Below, piece by piece: positions 1 to 38,304 of a stretch of DNA of 38,304 nucleotides; the first letter of the stretch is position 1, and each line of letters opens with the position of its first letter. The notes below the pieces were generated by a model that had not been told where the DNA came from, did not search any database, and worked only from the letters and a program-made list of their open reading frames with translations. This DNA comes from a virus (taxonomy: Duplodnaviria > Heunggongvirae > Uroviricota > Caudoviricetes): the IMG/VR virus record IMGVR_UViG_2667527993_000018; one strand, 5' to 3'. Made by a program: the position numbers and the translations under genes.

Positions 1-696
1 TCATTCATCCTCCTGATGCGTGGTAGCGGTCCCATTGAAGGGCAAAATAAAATCACCCAAACAGAAAACAGATTCTTCAGCCACGGATATAAGCTGCCCG
101 TTCAAACGCAGTGAAACGGGCGCAGAAGTTCGAATCGCAATACGCTGCGCGTCGAGCGTGACCTGTAATTCGCAGCCCTGCCAGAACAGAGGGAAAGACA
201 ACTGTTGCCACTGCTCCGGTAACGCCGGATTGAGATGTAATTCACCGTCACGCACGCTCACCCCGGCAAAACCCTGAATCGCCCCCAGCCAGATAGCGCC
301 AGTTGCGGCAGCGTGGATACCATCATCACAACTATGCGGATCAGCACCAAGATCGATTTCAGTCCCCTCGCGCCAGAACTGATAACTTTGGGTCAGCAGG
401 CCACAGCGTGCGGCAACAATGCCGTGGATTGCTTTACTTAATGACGAGTCGTGAATAGTGCGCGGTTCATAAAATTGCAGATTGGCAAGACACGATACCG
501 CTGAGAACTGCTCCGGCAGCATGTAATTGAGCATCACCACATCAGCTTGTTTGAGGATCTTATAGCGCGGCGATTTTTTTGATACCGATTTGCATTTCAT
601 TTGATACAGCTGAAAAACGCCGATACGCAACTTATTTGATACTAAATCGGCGCTTTTCTTTTGAGTTTTAGAATGAGTTTTTAAGCGCTCATTCAC
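1..696 (-). pseudogene. C-terminal fragment of a GH65-family glycoside hydrolase/phosphorylase, probable host gene interrupted by the prophage right end
   Basis: Translation from about 560 downward carries GH65-like C-terminal motifs (KQADVVML, YEPRTIHDSSLS, DDGIHAAATGAIW); stop codon at 1-3. The apparent ATG at 696 and first ~45 codons overlap the mom stop and putative phage end, so the true N-terminus is missing or phage-derived. Confidence 0.4.
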
Positions 697-1426
697 TCTC
701 TTTCAAACCAGCTTTAACTGTTTGTGGTTTTGGGTAAGGCTGGACTTTGAATAGCTTTGTGTTGAGGCGTTTTCTGGCCCTCTTGTTCAGAAACCGGATG
801 TAACGAAACTGTCGGAACTTATGCACACTGGCTCTGTCGATATTAGCCCTCAGATGTTCACCTCGTTGTCCGCCTCGTTTAATGGCATTCCTGCAAATCT
901 CGTGATACCACTCGCCATCAAGTTCATAGAATGTTGATTCATGGCTGCCTACATAATCAAAATTGCTGGCCTGATACACGACACCAAGACAGCCACAACG
1001 CTCATCTGCAAACGACTGAACCCACTGTACCTGCGGATAAAGCTGCCTGATTAGCTTGAGCGCGTAACTGATTGCCCTTGATTCGGAGTTTCTCGGCATA
1101 CAGTCATGCATCCATAGCCGGTTAAGCTCCATATATTCTCGGTTCTGCGTACCCGTTACGACGCGTGCACCACTGTTTGGGTTAAGGGCGTAACCCCATT
1201 GCATTACGCCAACAAGTTCCCGTTCTGAAAATATGCCCAGATGAAGGTAGGAATTATTTACGAAACGGTGGCTGTAATGTTTATTGACGATAACCAGTCT
1301 GGCCAGCCAGCAACTTATTGTCTCAACCCGCAACTCACGGGAGCCATAACCAACGATATTGTCGTTATAGCGAATAAGTTCAGGCGTGCTGATGATACGG
1401 GATGTGACTTGCTTTCTGTTCCCCAC
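689..1426 (-). CDS. mom: Mom-like DNA modification protein (anti-restriction adenine modification)
   Basis: 245-aa ORF at the extreme phage right end, directly downstream of and overlapping a Com-like zinc-finger ORF by ~47 nt, as in Mu com-mom. Not identified by sequence similarity I can verify; call rests on position and operon structure. Confidence 0.55.
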
Positions 1427-1580
1427 GACAGGATTTCCTTGTGTATGTGGGGTGCTCTGTGGCGCTCGGAGATGTGATTTGATTGAGGGTTTTACAGCGC
1501 GGACATTTTACTTCCAGATAACTGAAACTGGCCCGTGCCAGTAGCTTATTGCAGTGTCGGCACCGTATGTTTCGATACAT
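1380..1580 (-). CDS. com: Com-like zinc-finger translational activator of mom
   Basis: [14 protein letters not shown]...EVKCPRCK matches the Mu Com C-x2-C...C-x2-C core (Mu: IRCKNCNKLL...IRCPRCK). AGGAGG lies 9 nt upstream of the ATG at 1580; the ORF track's longer 1625 start is probably not used. Confidence 0.65.
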
Positions 1581-1624
1581 GGCCGCATAACCTCCTGCTT
1601 TGTTGTTGATGCCTTTCTCATGCA

Positions 1625-1770
1625 ATCGATCGACAAAAACGATCGATTCGATTTGTTTAATTGATACAACAAATAGATTTAAAAGTCATCAACAATGATT
1701 CAGGGCGGTGATTATTTACTTAAAGAAACGAAGAGTTAGGTGGTGAAAACGATCATAAAATGATCATTTT
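1625..1770 (-). promoter_or_regulatory. Putative mom promoter/operator region with a cluster of four GATC (Dam) sites
   Basis: GATC at 1628-1631, 1641-1644, 1751-1754 and 1762-1765 in AT-rich DNA just upstream of com. In Mu, Pmom has clustered GATC sites whose methylation state controls OxyR repression. Confidence 0.4.
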
Positions 1771-1987
1771 ATTGACTTTTTATACAGTGAAGGTAGGATC
1801 GCGCGTAGTATGTAGTATGTTTCAAATCAACAGGATACTACATAAAAGGGAAACCCAGCATAGCTGGAACTATGCTGGGTCAATCTGTAAAAACTTGCAT
1901 CAATGCTTTACTTCGAGCTCGTGGCGTATCCTATGATATTCCCCGGTCTCCTGTAAAGCAGAGATGCATAAAAAGGAGATCTTTATC

Positions 1988-2158
1988 ATGGATAAAGAGC
2001 CTGTTTGCCCTGCCTGTAAGACTCCCTTACAGCTCATCTATCGCCGTTCTCGATCTCAAAATGGCAAGACATACAAACCAAAAAATGCTTCCTGTTTCAG
2101 GATGCTGATATGTCCTGCCTGTTCTCCCCGGAGGGAAAATACACAAAACGTGCATTAA
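1988..2158 (+). CDS. Small zinc-ribbon protein (56 aa), unknown function
   Basis: Two CPAC motifs (CPACKT...CPACSP); AGGAG 9 nt upstream of the ATG at 1988; transcribed divergently from com and convergently with the esterase operon. Confidence 0.4.
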   Translation: MDKEPVCPACKTPLQLIYRRSRSQNGKTYKPKNASCFRMLICPACSPRRENTQNVH

Positions 2159-2167
2159 CAAATTCAC

Positions 2168-2198
2168 CCGGCAGGGAAACCTGCCGGTCGGTATTGTT
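2168..2198. terminator. Probable bidirectional rho-independent terminator
   Basis: Perfect 8-bp stem CCGGCAGG / CCTGCCGG with GAAA loop (2168-2187), T-rich flanks on both strands, between two convergent genes. Confidence 0.5.
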
Positions 2199-2442
2199 AC
2201 ATCATAGTACCGTCAGTTCCGGGCTGAACCGGCTCTGGTTGCTCTACGGGTTGAGGCTCATTTTCCGTGCTGTTTTCAGCCGGAGAACGACCAACCATTC
2301 GGGCCAGCACTTCATCAACATATGCGTCGATTTGTGCCTCAAAATCCTTGCGAACCTGCGCCTTCAGCACGCGGTTCACTTCTTCAGAATAAAGTGCCTG
2401 TTTGACAAGCTCTTCAGTAACCGTGCCTTTAATCTCTGGCAT
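2197..2442 (-). CDS. Hypothetical protein (81 aa), acidic proline-rich C-terminus
   Basis: AGGAG 8 nt upstream of the ATG at 2442; last gene of the esterase operon, immediately followed by the terminator hairpin. Confidence 0.5.
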   Translation of the reverse strand: MPEIKGTVTEELVKQALYSEEVNRVLKAQVRKDFEAQIDAYVDEVLARMVGRSPAENSTENEPQPVEQPEPVQPGTDGTMM

Positions 2443-2477
2443 GAATATTCTCCTTTCCTTTTCTGGTTCACAAAAAA

Positions 2478-2657
2478 TTAAATCTGACCGGAGTCTTTCG
2501 GCTGCGGCATTACAGCACCGCTTTTTATCTTTTCCTCGGCAGCTGCATCAATTTTATTTCGAAAATAATTGCGAATAATTTTATAACCACCGCTGACAAG
2601 CAACAGACAACAAACCACCGTGCAGAAATACAGCAGGCAGACGTTTATATATGTCAT
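2478..2657 (-). CDS. Small membrane protein (59 aa, one predicted TM helix)
   Basis: Hand translation gives MTYINVCLLYFCTVVCCLLLVSGGYKIIRNYF... with a hydrophobic N-terminal segment; GTGAGG ~6 nt upstream of the ATG at 2657; below the 60-aa cut-off of the ORF track. Confidence 0.4.
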   Translation of the reverse strand: MTYINVCLLYFCTVVCCLLLVSGGYKIIRNYFRNKIDAAAEEKIKSGAVMPQPKDSGQI

Positions 2658-2714
2658 ATAAGCCTCACTCTTATTAACTGATGTTACAGCCGGATAAATT
2701 CCCGGCCGTCACGA

Positions 2715-4772
2715 TTATGCCGCAGGGGTATTAACCTCAAGGACAACGCTCTCAAAAGACACGCCATAAGTTGCCCCTTTGGTGACATCTGTCAGTGTCA
2801 GCGTATCTTTGGCAGGGGAAAGTGCATCTTTCACCATCTGGAATGCCTGGCCCGGAGTGCCATCCAGCACAGGCGTTACCTGGGCACTTCCCGCCGTAAA
2901 CTTCAGGACAAGTGTATGCCACTGGTTATTGTAGGCTCCAAATGATCCCAGTTTCGTATTCCCCCCTGTTTTATGGTGCATCAGATTTAACTGGCCGCCT
3001 GTTGTCTGGAGATAATACGCCATCAGGAACGGTGTGCCTGTACCACTCATGGTTACACCTTCCGGGACCGTATCGGTGTGGAGGTAAATACCCAGAGCAA
3101 ACTGGCCTTCTTTTACTTCACCTGACAGACGGAATTTACAGGTCAACTGACCACCATGCTTCAGAAGTTCACCGGCTGCATCAGTTCCATGGGTAAGCGC
3201 CCAGGTTTTTCCGCTTTGTTTGGATACGGTCAACGCTTTACCTTCGTCCGTCAGCTGGATTGTACCATCTGTAATTTTCCAGCCCTGAGCCGGGGCTTCT
3301 CCTGCTGATGCTTTAAGTGAAAGCAGCGTACGGAGTGACGGGGATGTCGGATGGGGGGACTCACTGCCTCCTGGCTGACTACCTGTCGGCGCTTCCGGTT
3401 TCCCACCCGGCGCGGGCTGAGGCAGGGCTTCACCATCAGGGGCCACACCGGCAATAAATGCAGAGGTCAGACCTGCATATTTAAGAATTGCTGATGCAAA
3501 ACGATCTGAGACCAGAAAACGGCGCGCCCAGGAGCTAAAATGGGTTGCCCTGGATGCTGTTGTCCAGTTGCCATCTCCCCGTGATTCCGCACCATAATAC
3601 CCGGCAGAAGCGATATCCGGGTCGTGCTCCGGCAGGTTGGTCGCGGTTTTATTACCGAACTCATCGTGCATCAGTGGAACAAAGTGAATGTTCTCGGAAG
3701 CCCGGTTTTTATATCCGCTATAAATGGTTTCATATGCCGCCGGGTTCTTCTCTTTCCAGTCATAGGTTGTGTCACCACATAACCACGGCACACTGTCTGA
3801 TGAACCACCAATACACTGACCGGAGAAAGCACCAAGATCCGCACGGAATTTTTTCACCATCGCAGTAAACTGGGCACCATGCTGGGCCGGGGTCGCTTTA
3901 AGGTCTCCTTCCCCCTGAATCCATACGACAGATAACAGCACATTCTTTGGATTCGCCTCAAGTGCCGCTTTAGTTCGACTGACAAGATCCTGATACAGTG
4001 GGGTATCCACTCCCCAGCGTAGTGACGCCTCGGCTGCACCACTTGCCGGATCGAATGAGCCAACTGCGCCGGTTGTAAAAGCAGAGCCGCCACGGGCACA
4101 GGGAACCAGTAAAATCCCGGCATCAGCAGGAATCACCGGTAATACTTTTTTCGCAATATGAAGTCCCTGCCCCACACAACCATACTGCCCTTTTTTCAGG
4201 TCTGCTTTTGGATGGTTCAGCAGACTCATATTCTGAACATCATGAAGGCAGTGATCTGCTGGAATGATTTCATTGTATTTGCAGGGAATACCTCCGGGGG
4301 TTTGTGTATTCCTGCGTGCCAGCTGCATAATACGTGGATCAGGACGATCATAAGAATCCGGAAGGGGCAACCCTTCACCATAAGATGAAGCATTGGACTG
4401 GCCGGCTATAACAATCACGTAATACCAGGAAGGGGAGCTGGAAGCCGTTTCATTTCCTGCCGGACGGGTATGTGTTTCTGCATTATCCCAGTCTGACGGT
4501 TCAGTAGTACCGGCAACATCAGCACTTAACGGAATGACAGCACCAATACCCGCTCCGGTAATTTCCACGTTCGGATCACCGGATACTGGCCTTACCCACA
4601 GGCAATCCTGTGTATTAAAACTGATGAGACAGTCAGCAAATGTCATTCCTCCTTTCGTTTCAGCAGGAGGAAAGGGAGCCTCAAGAAATGCCGCTGTACC
4701 ACCGGAAACTTTAACGGTAAAGTTTCCGGGCATTGATGATAGTTGAACCCATTTGGACGTCATAATATTCAT
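2715..4772 (-). CDS. SASA/SGNH-type carbohydrate esterase with N-terminal unknown domain and C-terminal lectin-like (ConA/LamG-like) beta domain
   Basis: 685-aa ORF with VIVIAGQSNASSYGEG (GQSN motif of the sialate O-acetylesterase-like SGNH family); ~110-aa N-terminal region with no signal-peptide-like hydrophobic stretch; beta-rich C-terminal ~230 aa; AGGAACAGG upstream of the ATG at 4772. Confidence 0.7.
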   Translation of the reverse strand: MNIMTSKWVQLSSMPGNFTVKVSGGTAAFLEAPFPPAETKGGMTFADCLISFNTQDCLWVRPVSGDPNVEITGAGIGAVIPLSADVAGTTEPSDWDNAETHTRPAGNETASSSPSWYYVIVIAGQSNASSYGEGLPLPDSYDRPDPRIMQLARRNTQTPGGIPCKYNEIIPADHCLHDVQNMSLLNHPKADLKKGQYGCVGQGLHIAKKVLPVIPADAGILLVPCARGGSAFTTGAVGSFDPASGAAEASLRWGVDTPLYQDLVSRTKAALEANPKNVLLSVVWIQGEGDLKATPAQHGAQFTAMVKKFRADLGAFSGQCIGGSSDSVPWLCGDTTYDWKEKNPAAYETIYSGYKNRASENIHFVPLMHDEFGNKTATNLPEHDPDIASAGYYGAESRGDGNWTTASRATHFSSWARRFLVSDRFASAILKYAGLTSAFIAGVAPDGEALPQPAPGGKPEAPTGSQPGGSESPHPTSPSLRTLLSLKASAGEAPAQGWKITDGTIQLTDEGKALTVSKQSGKTWALTHGTDAAGELLKHGGQLTCKFRLSGEVKEGQFALGIYLHTDTVPEGVTMSGTGTPFLMAYYLQTTGGQLNLMHHKTGGNTKLGSFGAYNNQWHTLVLKFTAGSAQVTPVLDGTPGQAFQMVKDALSPAKDTLTLTDVTKGATYGVSFESVVLEVNTPAA

Positions 4773-4862
4773 CCTGTTCCTGAATAAACAGAATTATCAT
4801 ATCCACAGACCGATAAACGCCATTTTGCGTTAATTCAGTAAAGGCCCAACAAAGGGAGCGTC

Positions 4863-5423
4863 TTATTTTTCCGAAACGCTCGCAGGATAATAACGATAAA
4901 GGGTTGAAAGGCCGATATCAAAAATAAGTGCCACCTGTCTTCGACTGACACCCCCGGCCAGTAAACGCCCGACCTGCTCGTATTGTTCCTGCGTGAGACG
5001 ACGGGGTCTGCCGCCGGTTCGTCCCCTTTCACGGGCAGCTGCAAGACCAGCCCGTGTCCGTTCGACAATTAATTCACGCTCCATTTCTGCCAGCGCACCC
5101 ATTATGTGAAAAAAGAAGCGCCCCATGGGGGTTGACGTATCAATGTTGTCAGTAAGACTACGAAAATTTATCCCCTGTTGCTGTAATTCATCTGTCAGCG
5201 CAACAAGGTGGCGCATACTGCGCCCCAGCCTGTCCAGTTTCCAGACCATCAGTGTGTCACCGGGTTTTAGTTTCTTCAGTGCCCGCTTCAGTCCCGGCCG
5301 CTGTGTCGTTTTACCACTCATTTTGTCTTCAAAAATCTGCTCACATCCTGCACATTCCAGCGCATTTCTTTGTAAACCGGTGTTCTGGTCATTTGTTGAT
5401 ACGCGTATATAGCCAATCAGCAT
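4863..5423 (-). CDS. gin: Gin/Hin/Pin/Cin-family serine DNA invertase
   Basis: MLIGYIRVSTNDQ...GRSMRHL... resolvase/invertase catalytic domain plus C-terminal HTH; sits immediately beside the invertible tail-fibre segment. Confidence 0.9.
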   Translation of the reverse strand: MLIGYIRVSTNDQNTGLQRNALECAGCEQIFEDKMSGKTTQRPGLKRALKKLKPGDTLMVWKLDRLGRSMRHLVALTDELQQQGINFRSLTDNIDTSTPMGRFFFHIMGALAEMERELIVERTRAGLAAARERGRTGGRPRRLTQEQYEQVGRLLAGGVSRRQVALIFDIGLSTLYRYYPASVSEK

Positions 5424-10072: not shown

Positions 10073-11186
10073 TGAATTTAATCCCCTGTTTTTTCATCTG
10101 TGCCCGCACGAAGGCGTCCACGTCACCCGCATTTCCGCTTCCGCTGTTTCCCGGCTCTGCCGGAACAATAAAGCCGTCACGGGGTGCCAGAATCAGACGG
10201 GTGGTTTCGCCGTGATTTGCATCCAGCGAAAACTCCACCTGACAGACAAGAAGATCACGCTCTTCCACTCCGGTGCGGGGAGCCGTGACAGCCGTCAGCA
10301 GGTTGATATCCCACAACTGGCCGTTCTCCCGAAACCAGTGCCGCACGGTGGCTGTCAGGCGCACAGAGCGGGCAACCGCCCGGCGCATTTCCCGGACAGC
10401 CCTCTGGCGTGCACCGTCTGCATCAACAGCATGATCCGCCAGCACAATTTTCGGTCTGTAACGGTGGATGGCACTGTCTGTCACCGTACCAACGGGTGCG
10501 GCCAGCGTTCCGGCTGTCAGTGCATCCCCGGCATGACCACCACCACGCCCGTGCCCCCGTACACGGTATTCACTGTGGCGCAGACGGTGATCCACGTTGT
10601 GATCCAAATCCAGCAGATTTTCGCCCAGCGTCAGCGTGTCGCCACGCTGACTGCCGGCCTGAGTGAAAACCAGTTCACCGGCGGCATTACTGGTTACCAG
10701 GACGCCTCTGTGTCTCGCGGCCCGTGTCAGCGCATCTGCCACGGTTTCTGAGTTTTCCAGTGTGAAGGTGGAAAAGGGCCGGGCTGCCGTTGCATCATTT
10801 ACCTGCCAGCGCACCGTGACCCCGAACGGAGCACACAAATCTGAAGCAATGTGCTCCAGCGTGCGGTTCCTCCACTGGCTGCCCGGATGAATGGCTGAAC
10901 AGTCCACCAGGTCACCGGTTTTATCCCGTCCGCTGAGCGTGATCTGAAAACGCGTGGCGCTGATGCGCTGCCGGACCTGATCCAGCCAGCCAGTGATCAC
11001 AGGCTGACCGTCAATGCGCAATTCCAGAGACTGACCGGCACGGACGGATGACGGAAGGCGTACACCGGGCATCATTACCCCCAGTTCAAAGGAGCCCGCC
11101 AGATGTTCAAGAGAGCGACGAACACTCACCGTCAGCCAGCCGGAAAAAATCTCACCGCCCAGATACAGTTCAACCCTGCTGCTCAC
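10062..11186 (-). CDS. Baseplate hub protein, Mu P (gp44)-like
   Basis: 374-aa ORF downstream of the N-like gene, overlapping it by 17 nt. Confidence 0.7.
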   Translation of the reverse strand: MSSRVELYLGGEIFSGWLTVSVRRSLEHLAGSFELGVMMPGVRLPSSVRAGQSLELRIDGQPVITGWLDQVRQRISATRFQITLSGRDKTGDLVDCSAIHPGSQWRNRTLEHIASDLCAPFGVTVRWQVNDATAARPFSTFTLENSETVADALTRAARHRGVLVTSNAAGELVFTQAGSQRGDTLTLGENLLDLDHNVDHRLRHSEYRVRGHGRGGGHAGDALTAGTLAAPVGTVTDSAIHRYRPKIVLADHAVDADGARQRAVREMRRAVARSVRLTATVRHWFRENGQLWDINLLTAVTAPRTGVEERDLLVCQVEFSLDANHGETTRLILAPRDGFIVPAEPGNSGSGNAGDVDAFVRAQMKKQGIKFNDE

Positions 11187-18726: not shown

Positions 18727-19674
18727 TTACAGATAATCCGCGACAACCAGCTCCAGCTTACCCTTCATCTCGTTAGAGACGGTTGCGTTTCCGTCTGCGA
18801 ACAGTTCACGCTCCAGCAGCTGCACCGCCTGTTTTTCCAGCGAGGTGGGGACAACAATATGGGTGGGTTTAATGCCGAGTTTGCGGCCACCGTCAGCGGT
18901 AAATTCGCGCATGGCTGACCAGCCGTGCCACAGTGCATCCAGCGTCAGCGGTGACTGCATCATGTAGGCCATCTGCCAGAAGCCGTAGCCCACATTGCGA
19001 CGGGCGGATGCACCAAACACAAATTCGTTATCGGTGAATGCGCGACCTTCATCGACTTTGGTCTGGGCAACCAGTTCAGCCTTACGGCGATCCTGATAAA
19101 TCAGCGGTTTTACCGCGCGGGAGCAGTCAAGCAGATACCAGGCCGGACCGCTGTAATCAGCCTGTGCGCCGACAGAGCCGGTTTTTGCCACAAACATATT
19201 GCTGACCATCTGCGCATCCCCGGAGCCATCCACTTTGGGGTAAACCGGATGTTCGGTATCAAAGAAGTTCTGACCGTCATAGCAGGCCGCACTGATCCCG
19301 TCACGCAGGGCAGCAAAGACCAGCTCATCCGGTTGTACCGCCGCAGCGCGCCCCATCTCCTGGAACAACGGGGAATAAATACCGAGGTTGTCGTCTTCGA
19401 AGTCATCGCGGCTAATGGCGACAGTGCCTTCAAAAGTTTTGTTCACGATGGCATAGCCATAGGCTTTCATCTTCTCGATGACGCGGGAGCCGATCCACTC
19501 ACGGAACTGCGGGAACTGCCCCAGCCAGCCGTAGGTGTTGGATTTCGATGTGGAGGGCACGGTCATCGCAATTTTTTTATACTGCGACGGGGCCATGGAC
19601 ATCCCGGCCTGAAAATCAGAACGGTAGCCCGTCATCAGGGCTGTGATCATCGCCGGTGTAATCGGGGTAGGCAT
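18727..19674 (-). CDS. Major head (capsid) subunit, Mu T-like
   Basis: 315-aa ORF directly after the protease/scaffold gene with ATG overlapping its stop. Confidence 0.8.
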   Translation of the reverse strand: MPTPITPAMITALMTGYRSDFQAGMSMAPSQYKKIAMTVPSTSKSNTYGWLGQFPQFREWIGSRVIEKMKAYGYAIVNKTFEGTVAISRDDFEDDNLGIYSPLFQEMGRAAAVQPDELVFAALRDGISAACYDGQNFFDTEHPVYPKVDGSGDAQMVSNMFVAKTGSVGAQADYSGPAWYLLDCSRAVKPLIYQDRRKAELVAQTKVDEGRAFTDNEFVFGASARRNVGYGFWQMAYMMQSPLTLDALWHGWSAMREFTADGGRKLGIKPTHIVVPTSLEKQAVQLLERELFADGNATVSNEMKGKLELVVADYL

Positions 19675-28772: not shown

Positions 28773-29198
28773 TCAGAAAAGTGGCGGTTGCGTTCTTGCC
28801 AGATGCAGACGGCGCTGTTCGCGTATGACGGTATAAATCTGGGTTTCTGACATCCGGTAATGGCGGCGAAGGGATTCAATTTTCTCGCCCCGGTCCCAGC
28901 GCGAAAATATCTCATTGTTTCGCAGCTCGGCAAAGAGAGATTCCCCGACCGGCAGGTAATAACCCCGTCCGCCCATATAGGCTGCCTGAGCCGCAGCCAC
29001 CTTGCGTGCCAGTTTACCGGCCAGTACCGGCTCAATCCCCTGACGCTGAAGTTCTGCGCCGGTGACTTCAACCAGTTCTGACAGGGTCCGCGGCCAGTTC
29101 TTTTTGAGAACATCATCAGGGATGTCATCAAGGCGGTCGATAAGGGCGTGCAGTTGCTCACTGTCACCACCAAACATGCTCATCTGAGTTTCTGCCAT
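28773..29198 (-). CDS. Mor/C-family transcriptional activator of middle/late genes
   Basis: 141 aa; GGAGG 6 nt upstream of the ATG at 29198; located between gemA and the lysis genes as Mor/C are in Mu. Cannot distinguish Mor from C. Confidence 0.7.
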   Translation of the reverse strand: MAETQMSMFGGDSEQLHALIDRLDDIPDDVLKKNWPRTLSELVEVTGAELQRQGIEPVLAGKLARKVAAAQAAYMGGRGYYLPVGESLFAELRNNEIFSRWDRGEKIESLRRHYRMSETQIYTVIREQRRLHLARTQPPLF

Positions 29199-34936: not shown

Positions 34937-35865
34937 ACCTGTGAGAGTAATTCAGGGTTGGTATAAACCTCTTTAAAGGCCGCATTAATATGTTTTTCTG
35001 TCAGCGCCGCGCCTTCACCGCTGGCGGTGAGCCACGCCTGGTTAAGCGTATGTGTCAGAACGCGTAACGCTCCCGGCTTTTCAGCGATAGCCTGCATGAC
35101 GGCCAGCTCGGCCTCACCACTGATCCCCCACGCCCTGGCAATGGCCAGCACATCCGCCTTTTTGGCCTTGCGAAGTTGTTTTGTACGGGCAAGACGGCTG
35201 AACAGGCGCGATAAATCATCAAAGGCGCGGCGTCCACCTTTAAACAATCCGCGTGGGTTACCAATAAGCACCATCCCGATCCCCGTGGCGTCCTGAATTG
35301 CCCGGAGTTGCTCCAGACCGTCAATACCAAGATGATCCGCCTCATCCACAATCACCAGTCCACGCGTTCCCATCAGGCGACGGCGGATGGCGCGGGATAA
35401 TGCCCCTTTGTTCGCGCGGGTGTAATCAATCCCCAGCGCATCGGCCAGCTCCAGCAGACACTCCGTGACGCTGGAGTGCGCGGGTGACAGGGTGATCATC
35501 CAGGTGTTTGGTTGCTCCTGGCAGTAATTACGGGCAGTGGCCGTTTTACCCACACCCGGTACGCCCACGATGACGTTAATACAGCCCATCAGGCGAACCG
35601 CCTGAAACAGTGCGCGCAGCTCCTGGACTGTCTGCGTTTCCACAAACTGCGGCGGTTCCGGCAGTGCGCTTTGTTTATTCCAGTTCTCATACCAGGAGCG
35701 CAGGGAAGCAGCCACAGCAGCGTTATCGCCTTTATATTTCCCCTTGCGGAAAGCCGATAATGTGCCGTCGGAAATTCCCGCCTCTCTGGCGATGGCATAC
35801 TGCGTCAGTACGCCGCCATCAATAAGTTCATCAATGGTCTTGATTACATCGTTAATATCAGTCAT
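34933..35865 (-). CDS. B: Transposition ATPase B (MuB-like target DNA activator)
   Basis: 310 aa; N-terminal HTH then AAA+ ATPase with Walker A GVPGVGKT and Walker B LVIVDEADHL; directly downstream of the transposase. Confidence 0.9.
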   Translation of the reverse strand: MTDINDVIKTIDELIDGGVLTQYAIAREAGISDGTLSAFRKGKYKGDNAAVAASLRSWYENWNKQSALPEPPQFVETQTVQELRALFQAVRLMGCINVIVGVPGVGKTATARNYCQEQPNTWMITLSPAHSSVTECLLELADALGIDYTRANKGALSRAIRRRLMGTRGLVIVDEADHLGIDGLEQLRAIQDATGIGMVLIGNPRGLFKGGRRAFDDLSRLFSRLARTKQLRKAKKADVLAIARAWGISGEAELAVMQAIAEKPGALRVLTHTLNQAWLTASGEGAALTEKHINAAFKEVYTNPELLSQV

Positions 35866-35936: not shown

Positions 35937-38027
35937 TCAGGCCAGCGGGTCATTTTCTTTTAATTTCGCTTCCAGCAACTGCAATCCCCGCTGGAAATTA
36001 CGCTCGTATTCTTCATCAGGCTCATCATCAACGGCAGGTTGCTGAACGGCCACCGTATTACCTAACGGGCGATAGATGTTTTCCAGCCACGGCTCCTGCG
36101 GCTTGTGCTCCAGCACGTTGACCACCTCATCCTCGGCATCGCGGATTTTTTCCTCTGCGCGTTTACGCATGCCTTTAAGGCGTTGCTGCTGTTTGTAGTA
36201 TTCCGCGCTGACCGGGAAGGCTTCGCGTTTATTGCCGTCCCATACCGCCTCGCAAATCACGCTGCCATCCAGGCGACGCACGGTAATTCGTTCGGCATCA
36301 TGAATGTCATAGCTGATAAGCACCTTACGACCATGCTCGTCACGCAGCTCGGGCGCGTAGTAAATATTATTCAGCCAGCGTATTTCACAGCGTCTTACAG
36401 GGCGTTCCACCATCGGCCGGAACATATCCCGCAGCTCAACATCGGACAGCCATTCAATTTCCGTGTCCTCTTCCGCCAGGCGTTTTTTTCTGAACTCCGC
36501 CGGGCTGTAATGTTTACCGTTCGGCTTCATCGGTAATTCATCGTGCGGCCGGTTGTTGTACCACTCAACACCGTCACGAATGGCATCAATCAGTTCAGCC
36601 CAGGACGGTAAATCACGCATCGCTGACTGTTGCCGGGCGTTCAGCCGTTTGCCCTGTTGCAGGGCGGTAAATGCCGAGCGTAAATCGCGGTTGGTTTTGC
36701 GTAACGTCTCGCGATCTGCACCTTTCCCGAAATAGGTGCGGTATTTACGGGCTATGCGCATCGGTAATGTGCGGTTAAGCCGTTCGATAATGCCTCGCCC
36801 CTGCGGATTACCGGCAATCCCGGTCGGGTGATTAATCCCCAGTCGCGGCAGTATCCCCACAACCTCCTTATCCAGGACGTCGGCGGTTTCCCCGGAGCCG
36901 TTATCCGAGTAATACAGAAACGGTTTGCCGTGATGGCGAATGCCGTGCTGTATGGCACCGGCTACGGCGAAAACATTTTCAGCCAGGTCAAGGCTCCAGC
37001 CCACCACAAAGCGCGTGCCACCGTCGATAACAAAGGTCACTTCCGGTGCAAATGGCCGACCGTGAACCGGGTGTGCGCATTTCAGCTTCATGCCGTGACC
37101 GTCACCAATCCAGACATAATTCACCGGCATTCTGGACCAGTCGCGGCGCGTGAATCCCTCAAGCTGGCGGTATTCACTGCCGGTCACCCGGCCTTTTTGT
37201 TTCACCACTTCCGGCAGTTTCTTCATTGCGCGGCGAATGGTGTCATAAGACGGCATGATATCGAGCATATAAGGCTCATCAGCGTGCCGGTGCTGCCATT
37301 CAGCGACAAAATCCTCGTAAGCCTCGGTCATTGGTCGGCCGTTTGACTGGCGATACTGCGCCAGAAATTCGGGCAGCCAGTTAATATCTTCGGCTTTTAT
37401 TTCCTGGCGCTTACCCGGTGCCAGTAAAAGCAGGCGTTCAGCGGCGTTCTGCGCCTTGTTAAAGGCCGCAATCCAGCGTTTCAGCGTTATTTCACTCAAC
37501 GCACGGCTGTTTCCCTTTTTGGCGTTCGCCGTCTCAACCATTGCCACAATGCGCTCGTCCAGTTGCGAACGTGCCAGGTTGTCAACGATAAACCGGATAG
37601 CTTTCGCACAGCTGAAACCGGGTTGTTGCGCGACTTTCATCACTTCGCTGACGATCGCGATTCGTGCATCAGCCACCTGGCGCTGGTTTTCAGTCAGGGC
37701 ATTAAGGCGTTCAACCATCAGTTGTGGTGATCCGCGATATGCCTCCACCGCATCAACCACGGCAGGCGAGCGTCTGGCCTTTGTCACCACCGGAGCCGGT
37801 GATTCATCAGCTTTTTGCGTCATCAGTTGAAGGGCATAACGTTCACGCAATACTTGTTGCGCGCCAGAAGGCAAACAATCGATATTAAATTCGATTGCTT
37901 TTGTCCCCTTACGTTTGCGTAACATGGCTGCATTTCCCGCAGCTGCTTTTGTGAGTCGATGGCGAATGTTATGTTCCATCATTGGTAAATCAGGAAGACC
38001 AACACATTCTTTTGCTGTTACCCACAT
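35937..38027 (-). CDS. A: DDE transposase A (MuA-like)
   Basis: ~696-aa ORF; N-terminus MWVTAKECVGLPDLP parallels MuA (MELWVSPKECANLPGLP); central region has a DDE-type core; the ATG at 38027 avoids overlap with ner (the ORF track starts at 38048). Confidence 0.9.
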   Translation of the reverse strand: MWVTAKECVGLPDLPMMEHNIRHRLTKAAAGNAAMLRKRKGTKAIEFNIDCLPSGAQQVLRERYALQLMTQKADESPAPVVTKARRSPAVVDAVEAYRGSPQLMVERLNALTENQRQVADARIAIVSEVMKVAQQPGFSCAKAIRFIVDNLARSQLDERIVAMVETANAKKGNSRALSEITLKRWIAAFNKAQNAAERLLLLAPGKRQEIKAEDINWLPEFLAQYRQSNGRPMTEAYEDFVAEWQHRHADEPYMLDIMPSYDTIRRAMKKLPEVVKQKGRVTGSEYRQLEGFTRRDWSRMPVNYVWIGDGHGMKLKCAHPVHGRPFAPEVTFVIDGGTRFVVGWSLDLAENVFAVAGAIQHGIRHHGKPFLYYSDNGSGETADVLDKEVVGILPRLGINHPTGIAGNPQGRGIIERLNRTLPMRIARKYRTYFGKGADRETLRKTNRDLRSAFTALQQGKRLNARQQSAMRDLPSWAELIDAIRDGVEWYNNRPHDELPMKPNGKHYSPAEFRKKRLAEEDTEIEWLSDVELRDMFRPMVERPVRRCEIRWLNNIYYAPELRDEHGRKVLISYDIHDAERITVRRLDGSVICEAVWDGNKREAFPVSAEYYKQQQRLKGMRKRAEEKIRDAEDEVVNVLEHKPQEPWLENIYRPLGNTVAVQQPAVDDEPDEEYERNFQRGLQLLEAKLKENDPLA

Positions 38028-38037
38028 ACATCCCCCA

Positions 38038-38304
38038 TCAAGCCACATCTCTGGCGTCCACCTGGTATCTGCTGGGCCAGATTACAGCAGGTTCAACCCC
38101 TATTTTTTCGGCGATGGCGGCTTCGTATTTACGGCACTGGCGGTAAAACACATTGCGCATTGATCCGCTTTTTAATCCTAACTCCCTTTCCAGTTCAGGG
38201 AGGTCTGTGCCTTTGTTTTCAAGGGCTGCATATACCGCTTTAGCAGACCAGTCACACCCCTCTCGAACAAACAAATTATTCGATGCTTGTCTGGATACCC
38301 TCAT
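38038..38304 (-). CDS. ner: Ner-like DNA-binding transcriptional regulator
   Basis: C-terminal ...EPAVIWPSRYQ matches the Ner/Nlp family signature; the ATG coincides with the window edge, so the true start may lie outside the window. Confidence 0.75.
   Translation of the reverse strand: MRVSRQASNNLFVREGCDWSAKAVYAALENKGTDLPELERELGLKSGSMRNVFYRQCRKYEAAIAEKIGVEPAVIWPSRYQVDARDVA

Follow-up and report, generated by a model that had tools for sequence, protein, structure and literature searches.

A NanS-p-type sialate O-acetylesterase cassette with an unrelated N-terminal domain between gin and com of a Sp18-type Mu-like prophage

The interval between the genes gin and com was analyzed in a Mu-like prophage contained in IMG/VR record IMGVR_UViG_2667527993_000018, a stretch of 38,304 nucleotides referred to here as the window, in which the prophage lies on the minus strand and follows the Mu gene order up to the transposase gene (35937-38048). 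In phage Mu, gin ends at position 35673 and com starts at 35768, with a gap of 94 bp; in the window, the gap is 3,282 bp and holds a minus-strand gene for a 685-residue protein, genes of the DUF1378 and DUF826 families on the same strand and, on the opposite strand, a small zinc-ribbon open reading frame (ORF). This is the nanS-p cassette already known from lambdoid Shiga-toxin (Stx) phages, in a new host phage. Under the reading that we favor, with a probability of about 0.7, it is a lineage-conserved accessory operon of the Sp18-type Mu-like phages and not a recent insertion. The novel feature of this particular cassette is the esterase's N-terminal domain, an all-β module that takes the place of the DUF1737 domain of the lambdoid proteins.

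An earlier note, made from the DNA sequence alone, had described the interval as an esterase operon facing a small double-CxxC protein, and the four ORFs have the lengths and orientations that it gave. They are not chance reading frames, given the Pfam matches listed in Table 1 and the matches of the large protein to the Protein Data Bank (PDB), and these same matches agree with its description as a SASA/SGNH esterase. On the basis of its sequence, the 685-residue protein is a NanS-p-type sialate O-acetylesterase, in which a NanS-like SGNH domain is followed by a lectin-like jelly-roll domain. Residues 108-432 match Escherichia coli NanS (YjhS), a 9-O-acetyl-N-acetylneuraminate esterase (PDB 3PT5; phmmer against the PDB, E 3.7e-110), and the nucleophile Ser126, within GQSN, and His411, within the RxxH block, are invariant across the alignment with relatives. 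The latter block reads RATH in the window, and RSSH, RASH and RPTH are the variants of this block IV described for NanS-p (PMC10462455). Residues 481-682 match the NanS-p C-terminal domain (PDB 6YP6, E 1e-41); this lectin domain is only 39-41% identical to those of other alleles, and when it is aligned to 6YP6, of four aromatic residues with a proposed role in sugar binding (PMC10462455), three are kept, one of them as Phe, and the fourth falls in a gap. The protein has no signal peptide and no hydrophobic N-terminus. The start codon conserved among relatives is the ATG at 4763, which gives 682 residues, and PGAP labels the product a "DUF6645 domain-containing protein". A single-sequence AlphaFold model of the whole protein had a mean predicted local distance difference test (pLDDT) score of 32 and was not used.

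The two smaller minus-strand genes also fit their earlier description, the 59-residue protein with one strongly hydrophobic N-terminal segment (KD19 2.46) and the 81-residue protein being acidic. In Stx phages, the DUF1378 and DUF826 families lie between nanS-p and the holin gene (PMC10462455), and in BP-4795 a DUF1378-family gene follows nanS-p.

The order gin, N-domain-esterase, DUF1378, DUF826, a short variable slot, com and mom is recurrent. It is found in the Sakai prophage Sp18, where the cassette corresponds to ECs_4993-ECs_4996, all annotated as "hypothetical", in FORC_043, in M18, in a Mu-like phage inserted in Stx phages, and in every one of the 34 IMG/VR loci that are long enough to show it. 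The module is present in about 210 of 5,426 complete E. coli genomes (~4%), and a Salmonella Mu-like prophage has an N-domain of 27% identity that is again fused to an esterase and again downstream of gin. All Sp18-type prophages examined carry the module, in three lineages whose N-domains are 27-58% identical. Its flanks show no direct repeats and no ends resembling those of insertion sequences (IS), and the G+C content of nanS-p (0.51, against 0.54 for the phage) does not point to a foreign composition. The earlier note had placed these genes outside the Mu gene set, and they are indeed absent from Mu itself; however, its proposal of an inserted moron is not supported, as the module is found with one gene order and at one site in all the Sp18-type prophages examined, the Salmonella lineage included, and as flanking repeats or IS ends are absent and the G+C content is unremarkable. 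Between close relatives, only the 230-bp zinc-ribbon slot varies. The module is accessory with respect to Mu, yet an old, fixed part of the Sp18-type branch.

In E. coli SMN013SH2 (NZ_CP023673; L008), a chromosomal rearrangement has cut the esterase gene in two, with the N-terminal part adjoining gin and the remainder about 4 kb away in the opposite orientation, abutting a truncated integrase gene. In the Mu-like prophage of Salmonella enterica (L010 7426-7910), two additional ORFs of 58 and 87 codons lie between gin and the N-domain-esterase gene, which indicates that cargo can be accepted next to gin as well.

Comparison with Sp18 separates the cassette into a part that stays with the phage and a part that is exchanged. 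The two prophages are of the same type, with the module at the same position and in the same order, and their DNA is 96-100% identical outside the segment from ~2450 to ~4435 but 35-75% identical inside it, with sharp edges. The right edge coincides with the junction between N-domain and esterase (about residue 111) and the left edge falls just before the start of DUF826. The N-domain is 96% identical to that of Sp18, DUF826 99-100% and the zinc-ribbon region 98-100%, whereas Sp18 carries another allele of the esterase (68%), the lectin domain (39%) and DUF1378 (59%). Given this pattern of identity, the window allele is a swapped payload, with the N-domain and DUF826 remaining with the phage backbone. 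The window allele of the exchanged block occurs in 43-47 of the 5,426 E. coli genomes.

The first ~107 residues of the protein have no Pfam, NCBIfam or significant PHROG match, and residues 1-110 give no Pfam match even at E 0.1. The Pfam model of DUF1737 detects that domain in BP-4795 (E 1.7e-15) and in an esterase of a P2-like phage (E 7e-7) but finds nothing in the N-terminus of the window protein or of a diverged relative; a relationship to DUF1737 was rejected on this ground and on that of a profile-profile comparison (hhalign probability 0.06%). When 1.84 billion representative proteins were searched exhaustively with phmmer, five matches were obtained: three enterobacterial fragments of this fusion, an identical fragment of 26 residues, and a match to a repeat protein that is probably spurious. 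A profile run against 5.8 billion proteins yielded, in addition, only fragments from E. coli, Shigella and Salmonella, and a scan of species-representative genomes found nothing. AlphaFold, given a shallow alignment of seven sequences, predicts a confident all-β core at residues 8-82 (pLDDT 82-89) and, after it, a disordered linker whose SSSP end immediately precedes the esterase; the fold can be assigned no more finely than to a generic cupin/jelly-roll. The predicted fold resembles those of small stand-alone phage proteins. Two types of the domain are ~58% identical to each other and the third, from the Salmonella prophage, is 27% identical. These comparisons show that the DUF1737 domain of lambdoid NanS-p has been replaced by an unrelated, rare domain of ~80 residues, seen only in Mu-like prophages. 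The idea that each phage type has an N-domain of its own was rejected, as the P2-like phage uses DUF1737. In that phage, vB_EcoM-705R2 (Peduoviridae; L046 5800-7050), a DUF1737-SASA esterase gene directly follows the lysis genes; the record stops inside the gene, the C-terminal end of which lies beyond it. Besides lambdoid and Mu-like phages, a P2-like one thus also has the NanS-p module.

The spacer between gin and nanS-p has no consensus σ70 promoter and contains a different element. The regions of the window that match the Mu promoters Plys and PI by position, that is, the one between the Mor/C-family gene and lys and the one upstream of the head protease gene I, share TGAnnTnnCGCAAAR, with TAYGCT 22 nt later. 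The sequence TGAnnTnnCGCAAA occurs three times in the window, against 0.10 expected, and only upstream of lys, the I protease gene and nanS-p, each time in the orientation of the gene. The FORC_043 prophage has exactly three copies in the same three places (0.14 expected), and both box and spacing are kept between the two prophages in a gin/nanS-p spacer that has otherwise diverged. Upstream of the esterase gene, TATGAT sits 21 nt after CGCAAAA; the pattern CGCAAAR-N20-23-TAYGMT, relaxed after the nanS-p site had been seen, has three occurrences against 0.05 expected. An upstream box with a -10-like hexamer 21-22 nt after it and no -35 is the layout of Mu-type, Mor/C-activated late promoters, and the putative nanS-p promoter shares it. 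Because the box is common to the lys and head protease operons, the cassette is probably a late transcription unit of the phage; in Stx phages, too, nanS-p belongs to the late genes (PMC8065619). The Mor/C-family activator gene of the window (28773-29198) lies directly upstream of lys and is the only one seen in this prophage type; that of FORC_043 is at 10651-11073 (L045).

On the basis of these data, we propose that the operon is transcribed late in lytic growth, presumably driven by the single Mor/C-family activator of the phage, and that transcription would end at the terminator at 1881-1852, shielding the mom promoter. The enzyme would be made in the cytoplasm and, since it lacks a signal peptide, released at cell lysis, perhaps riding on the virion. 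By analogy with the lambdoid alleles, for which esterase activity and a growth benefit to lysogens on Neu5,9Ac2 have been published (PMC8065619), it would strip mucin sialic acids, Neu5,9Ac2 for example, of their O-acetyl groups. The deacetylated sugars could then be used by surviving sibling lysogens, or virions could be helped in mucus, or both.

Several points weigh against this picture of a conserved late operon. The box was derived from the comparison of only two reference promoters, its role as an activator site is assumed from its position by analogy with Mu Plys and PI, and its distance from the -10 element is one nucleotide shorter at nanS-p (21 versus 22 nt). A box-bearing equivalent of the Mu promoter PP was not found in the window, the region upstream of com-mom is without the box, and transcription could also enter nanS-p by read-through from gin. 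The outlier lectin domain (~40% identity), in which one of the four proposed aromatic residues is missing, may mean that substrate targeting differs. For neither this protein nor ECs_4993 of Sp18 did literature searches turn up expression or enzyme data, and nothing relevant was found in the searchable literature on nanS-p in Mu-like phages, on ECs4993-4996, or on NanS in connection with Sp18.

The earlier note had also raised the possibility of an extra virion enzyme, in which case the N-domain would anchor the esterase to the head or tail of the Mu-type particle and the phage would carry an enzyme that deacetylates sugars of mucus or of the cell surface. Such a role would extend the lineage-conserved operon and does not compete with it. 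The precedent is gp84 of phi24B, a NanS-p that is a capsid decoration protein, attached via DUF1737 as hexamers on the capsid hexons and processed near SSP motifs (bioRxiv 10.64898/2026.04.10.717836); it makes a virion-borne enzyme more plausible here. Several features of the N-domain fit such a role: it takes up the position of DUF1737, a disordered linker with SSSP at its end comes next, it occurs in Mu-like prophages alone, small stand-alone phage proteins have folds that resemble it, and the exchange of the enzyme, with an edge exactly at the domain junction, leaves it in the phage backbone. In addition, the protein is probably expressed together with the structural genes. Against this, the T=7 head of Mu carries no decoration protein (PMC11915804), and the major head proteins of the window (18727-19674) and FORC_043 are 97.8% identical while their N-domains are only ~58% identical, so that there is no co-variation with the capsid; this comparison is limited by mosaicism and lends no support to capsid binding. 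The N-domain diverges instead together with the linked tail-fibre/gin block. We regard attachment to the virion as a tentative possibility, and the same holds for the more specific idea, drawn by analogy, that the β-barrel might be an unrecognized virion-anchoring module, functionally convergent with DUF1737.

The 3' part of the interval has a different character. The slot of ~230 bp between DUF826 and the terminator (~1966-2196) is hypervariable among relatives, in which the whole DUF826-com interval ranges from 462 to 1,049 bp. The other slot types (L005, L006, L011, L022, L024, L041, L042) hold unrelated small ORFans, mostly on the opposite strand, among them a pair of 66-78 and 68-76 residues, a protein of 97-101 residues and a zinc-ribbon membrane protein of 175 residues, and none of them has a Pfam or PADLOC match except for a weak zinc-ribbon motif match of the last. 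The slot may be a hot spot for small genes expressed from the prophage. In the window, it is occupied by the convergent 56-codon ORF, for which the double CxxC and the strong Shine-Dalgarno sequence that had been described earlier are both present, as two CPAC motifs and an AGGAG. The claim of a divergent zinc-ribbon gene holds in these respects but is weakened by the lack of homologues outside these prophages and by the state of the alleles, three of six of which are damaged: one by a frameshift in an A-run, one by replacement of the zinc ligand Cys7 with Tyr, and the Sakai type by a 1-nt insertion. That insertion interrupts the ORF and joins what is left of it to a frame upstream, giving the 154-residue ECs_4996, on account of which PGAP calls the window copy "frameshifted". 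The 154-codon frame was itself rejected as a true gene, as its upstream half overlaps both the hairpin of the terminator and the control region of mom, and as the frame is broken in Mu_JNE082796. Other assignments of the 56-residue protein were also discarded, as its matches to Trm112p and phrog_9584 are below threshold and it has no similarity to Com; no Pfam match exceeded the threshold.

A working gene in this slot, for instance one for a small nucleic-acid-binding regulator or exclusion factor that the prophage would express in antisense to the end of the nanS-p transcript, would agree with the well-placed Shine-Dalgarno sequence, the two CPAC motifs and the basic product, with the other small, mostly opposite-strand genes that the slot holds in Mu-like prophages, one of them also a zinc ribbon, and with the identical copy of the ORF in prophages that have a different nanS-p type (L039, L040). 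However, two of the six alleles are frameshifted and a third has lost Cys7, homologues elsewhere and similarity to Com are lacking, the best promoter candidate, TTTACT-19-TATGAT, is not a consensus one, and PGAP treats the region as a frameshifted pseudogene. The ORF may be a gene but is of doubtful function, and we consider a working gene unlikely.

Still less probable is the proposal of the earlier note that the cassette is a lysogenic-conversion or exclusion module, expressed from the resting prophage to alter acetylation of the host surface or to block other phages: its absence from Mu, its right-end site by the tail-fibre genes, where accessory genes are common, and the benefit of NanS-p to lysogens growing on Neu5,9Ac2 (PMC8065619) would suit it, but none of the four proteins matches a defense model in PADLOC, an enzyme without a signal peptide would remain cytoplasmic as long as the lysogen is intact, the gin/nanS-p spacer offers only a late-type box and no σ70 consensus, and the cassette is conserved across the whole lineage, not sporadic, with a composition that is not foreign.

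The lineage-conserved operon that we favor has a boundary on the com side that differs from the one first drawn. The insertion of ~3.2 kb proposed in the earlier note is accessory relative to Mu, but the ~270-385 bp nearest to com (1581 to ~1965) are control region and terminator and not cargo. The hairpin between DUF826 and the zinc-ribbon ORF, which had been taken for a terminator shared by the convergent genes, is real; however, it has no proper T-run on either strand, was not listed by the terminator scan, and belongs to the variable cargo, in the part that is not shared with other slot types. The canonical operon terminator is the one at 1881-1852, which is conserved across slot types and lies directly before the com-mom control region; the nanS-p operon probably ends at it, and it probably insulates the mom promoter. 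The control region is kept at 92-96% in Mu-like prophages with other cargo, and Mu has GATC clusters at the equivalent place; the exact junction with Mu upstream of com could not be placed, as the two DNAs are too diverged. At 1624-1648, just upstream of the com ribosome-binding site, lies a near-perfect GATC-rich palindrome, AATCGATCG-N7-CGATCGATT, with further GATC sites at ~1751, 1762 and 1797, an arrangement that resembles the Dam/OxyR-controlled mom region of Mu.

Table 1. Positions of the gin-com interval features and of its boundary genes in the window.
Feature	Position	Strand	Evidence or description
gin, G-segment DNA invertase	4863..5423	-	Pfam Resolvase E 1.4e-51, HTH_7 E 1.7e-14; upstream boundary of the interval
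Late-promoter-like element, gin/nanS-p spacer	4796..4837	-	Box TGAATTAACGCAAA 4824-4837, then -10-like TATGAT 4796-4801
nanS-p-like gene, three-domain sialate O-acetylesterase, 685 aa	2715..4772	-	phrog_143 E 3e-273
N-terminal domain, aa 1-105	4458..4772	-	All-β core ~aa 8-82, then disordered Ser/Pro linker ending in SSSP; in place of DUF1737
NanS-type SGNH/SASA esterase domain, aa 108-432	3477..4451	-	Pfam SASA E 1.6e-13; GQSN (Ser126), RATH (His411)
C-terminal lectin-like jelly-roll domain, aa 481-682, diverged allele	2727..3332	-	Pfam DUF6645 (PF20350) E 8e-26
Exchanged allele block: esterase, lectin domain and DUF1378	2450..4435	-	Window compared with Sakai Sp18
DUF1378 gene, 59 aa, one N-terminal transmembrane segment	2478..2657	-	Pfam PF07125 E 9e-24, phrog_494 E 4e-29
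DUF826 gene, 81 aa, acidic, pI 4.4	2197..2442	-	Pfam PF05696 E 3e-15, phrog_311 E 5e-30
G+C-rich hairpin between DUF826 and zinc-ribbon ORF	2163..2186	.	8 G+C-rich pairs, -22 kcal/mol, z -4.1/-3.8
Double-CPAC zinc-ribbon ORF, 56 aa (64 aa from 1964), basic, pI 9.8	1988..2158	+	ORFan; AGGAG 1975-1979, 8 nt before ATG 1988
Strong intrinsic terminator	1852..1881	-	13-bp stem and T-run, -21.5 kcal/mol, z -6.3
com-mom control region, AT-rich (G+C 0.38), GATC-rich, not cargo	1581..1851	-	Sequence; common to Mu-like prophages with other cargo
com	1380-1580	-	Pfam Zn_ribbon_Com E 3e-12; downstream boundary of the interval
mom	689-1426	-	Pfam Mom E 6e-77; downstream boundary of the interval

The gin product is 75% identical to Mu Gin, with an invertible tail-fibre segment beyond the gene, and com and mom are also called in the PGAP annotation of an identical sequence. 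What accompanies com varies among relatives. In the closely related Mu_JNE082796 (L001 2963-4015; in the Stx phages LC727881 and LC727895), a C5-cytosine methyltransferase of 350 residues (PF00145, E 2e-42) follows com and replaces mom, and three loci (L015, L020, L041) keep the com match and have no mom match. The right end of the prophage, at ~590, disrupts a host GH65 glycoside hydrolase gene (window 1-696; Pfam Glyco_hydro_65m and 65C), and the UTAK-15 copy, although 100% identical over the 3.7 kb compared (window 1400-5100), is inserted in araG, as would be expected of random Mu-type transposition. NCBIfam and Rfam searches were negative, as was an ARAGORN search for tRNA genes anywhere in the window. 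In the FORC_043 prophage, PGAP has a "tRNA-OTHER" feature that lies between the gene for head morphogenesis and G (L045 18536-18615).

NanS-p esterases are thought to help Shiga toxin-producing E. coli feed on the O-acetylated sialic acids of mucin, and individual strains have more than one, often described as several, of their genes. Only lambdoid copies are tallied and characterized in the searchable literature; the Mu-like one, an allele left out of these counts and with a strongly diverged lectin domain, is still labeled "hypothetical" or "DUF6645" in Sp18 and in ~4% of complete E. coli genomes. The clean exchange of the capsid-binding DUF1737 head for a domain of the Mu lineage bears on the function of the N-terminus, and if the latter does prove to be a virion anchor, attachment of the same mucus-processing enzyme to virions would have arisen independently in two unrelated groups of phages. 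The common promoter box provides a direct handle on late gene control in the Sp18-type phages.

Compared with the C-activated late operons of Mu (Plys, PI, PP and Pmom), the lys and I operons of the window lie where Mu has Plys and PI, but Mu has no operon between gin and com, its box CCCGCACCT and the spacing of that box differ from those of the window, and it has two activators, Mor and C, where only one Mor/C-family gene is seen in the window lineage. Chromosomal NanS of E. coli K-12 (YjhS, 3PT5) is homologous along its whole length to the catalytic domain of the window protein; it is a single-domain protein of ~330 residues, exported to the periplasm and a member of the nan regulon, whereas the window protein is phage-encoded and has additional N- and C-terminal domains. 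The closest parallel is the lambdoid NanS-p of Stx phages, which has the same SGNH/SASA domain (GQSN, RxxH) followed by a lectin-like jelly-roll, adjoining DUF1378 and DUF826 genes, no signal peptide and late expression, which is probable for the window gene. The two differ in overall identity (only 50-62%), in the N-terminus, which is DUF1737 in the lambdoid proteins and an unrelated all-β domain in the window, and in location: the lambdoid gene lies downstream of Q/stx and upstream of the holin gene, as seen in BP-4795, and the window gene between gin and com of a transposable Mu-like myovirus. The putative promoter differs accordingly in type, being pR' in the lambdoid system and, in the window, an element of the phage's own late (Mor/C) type.

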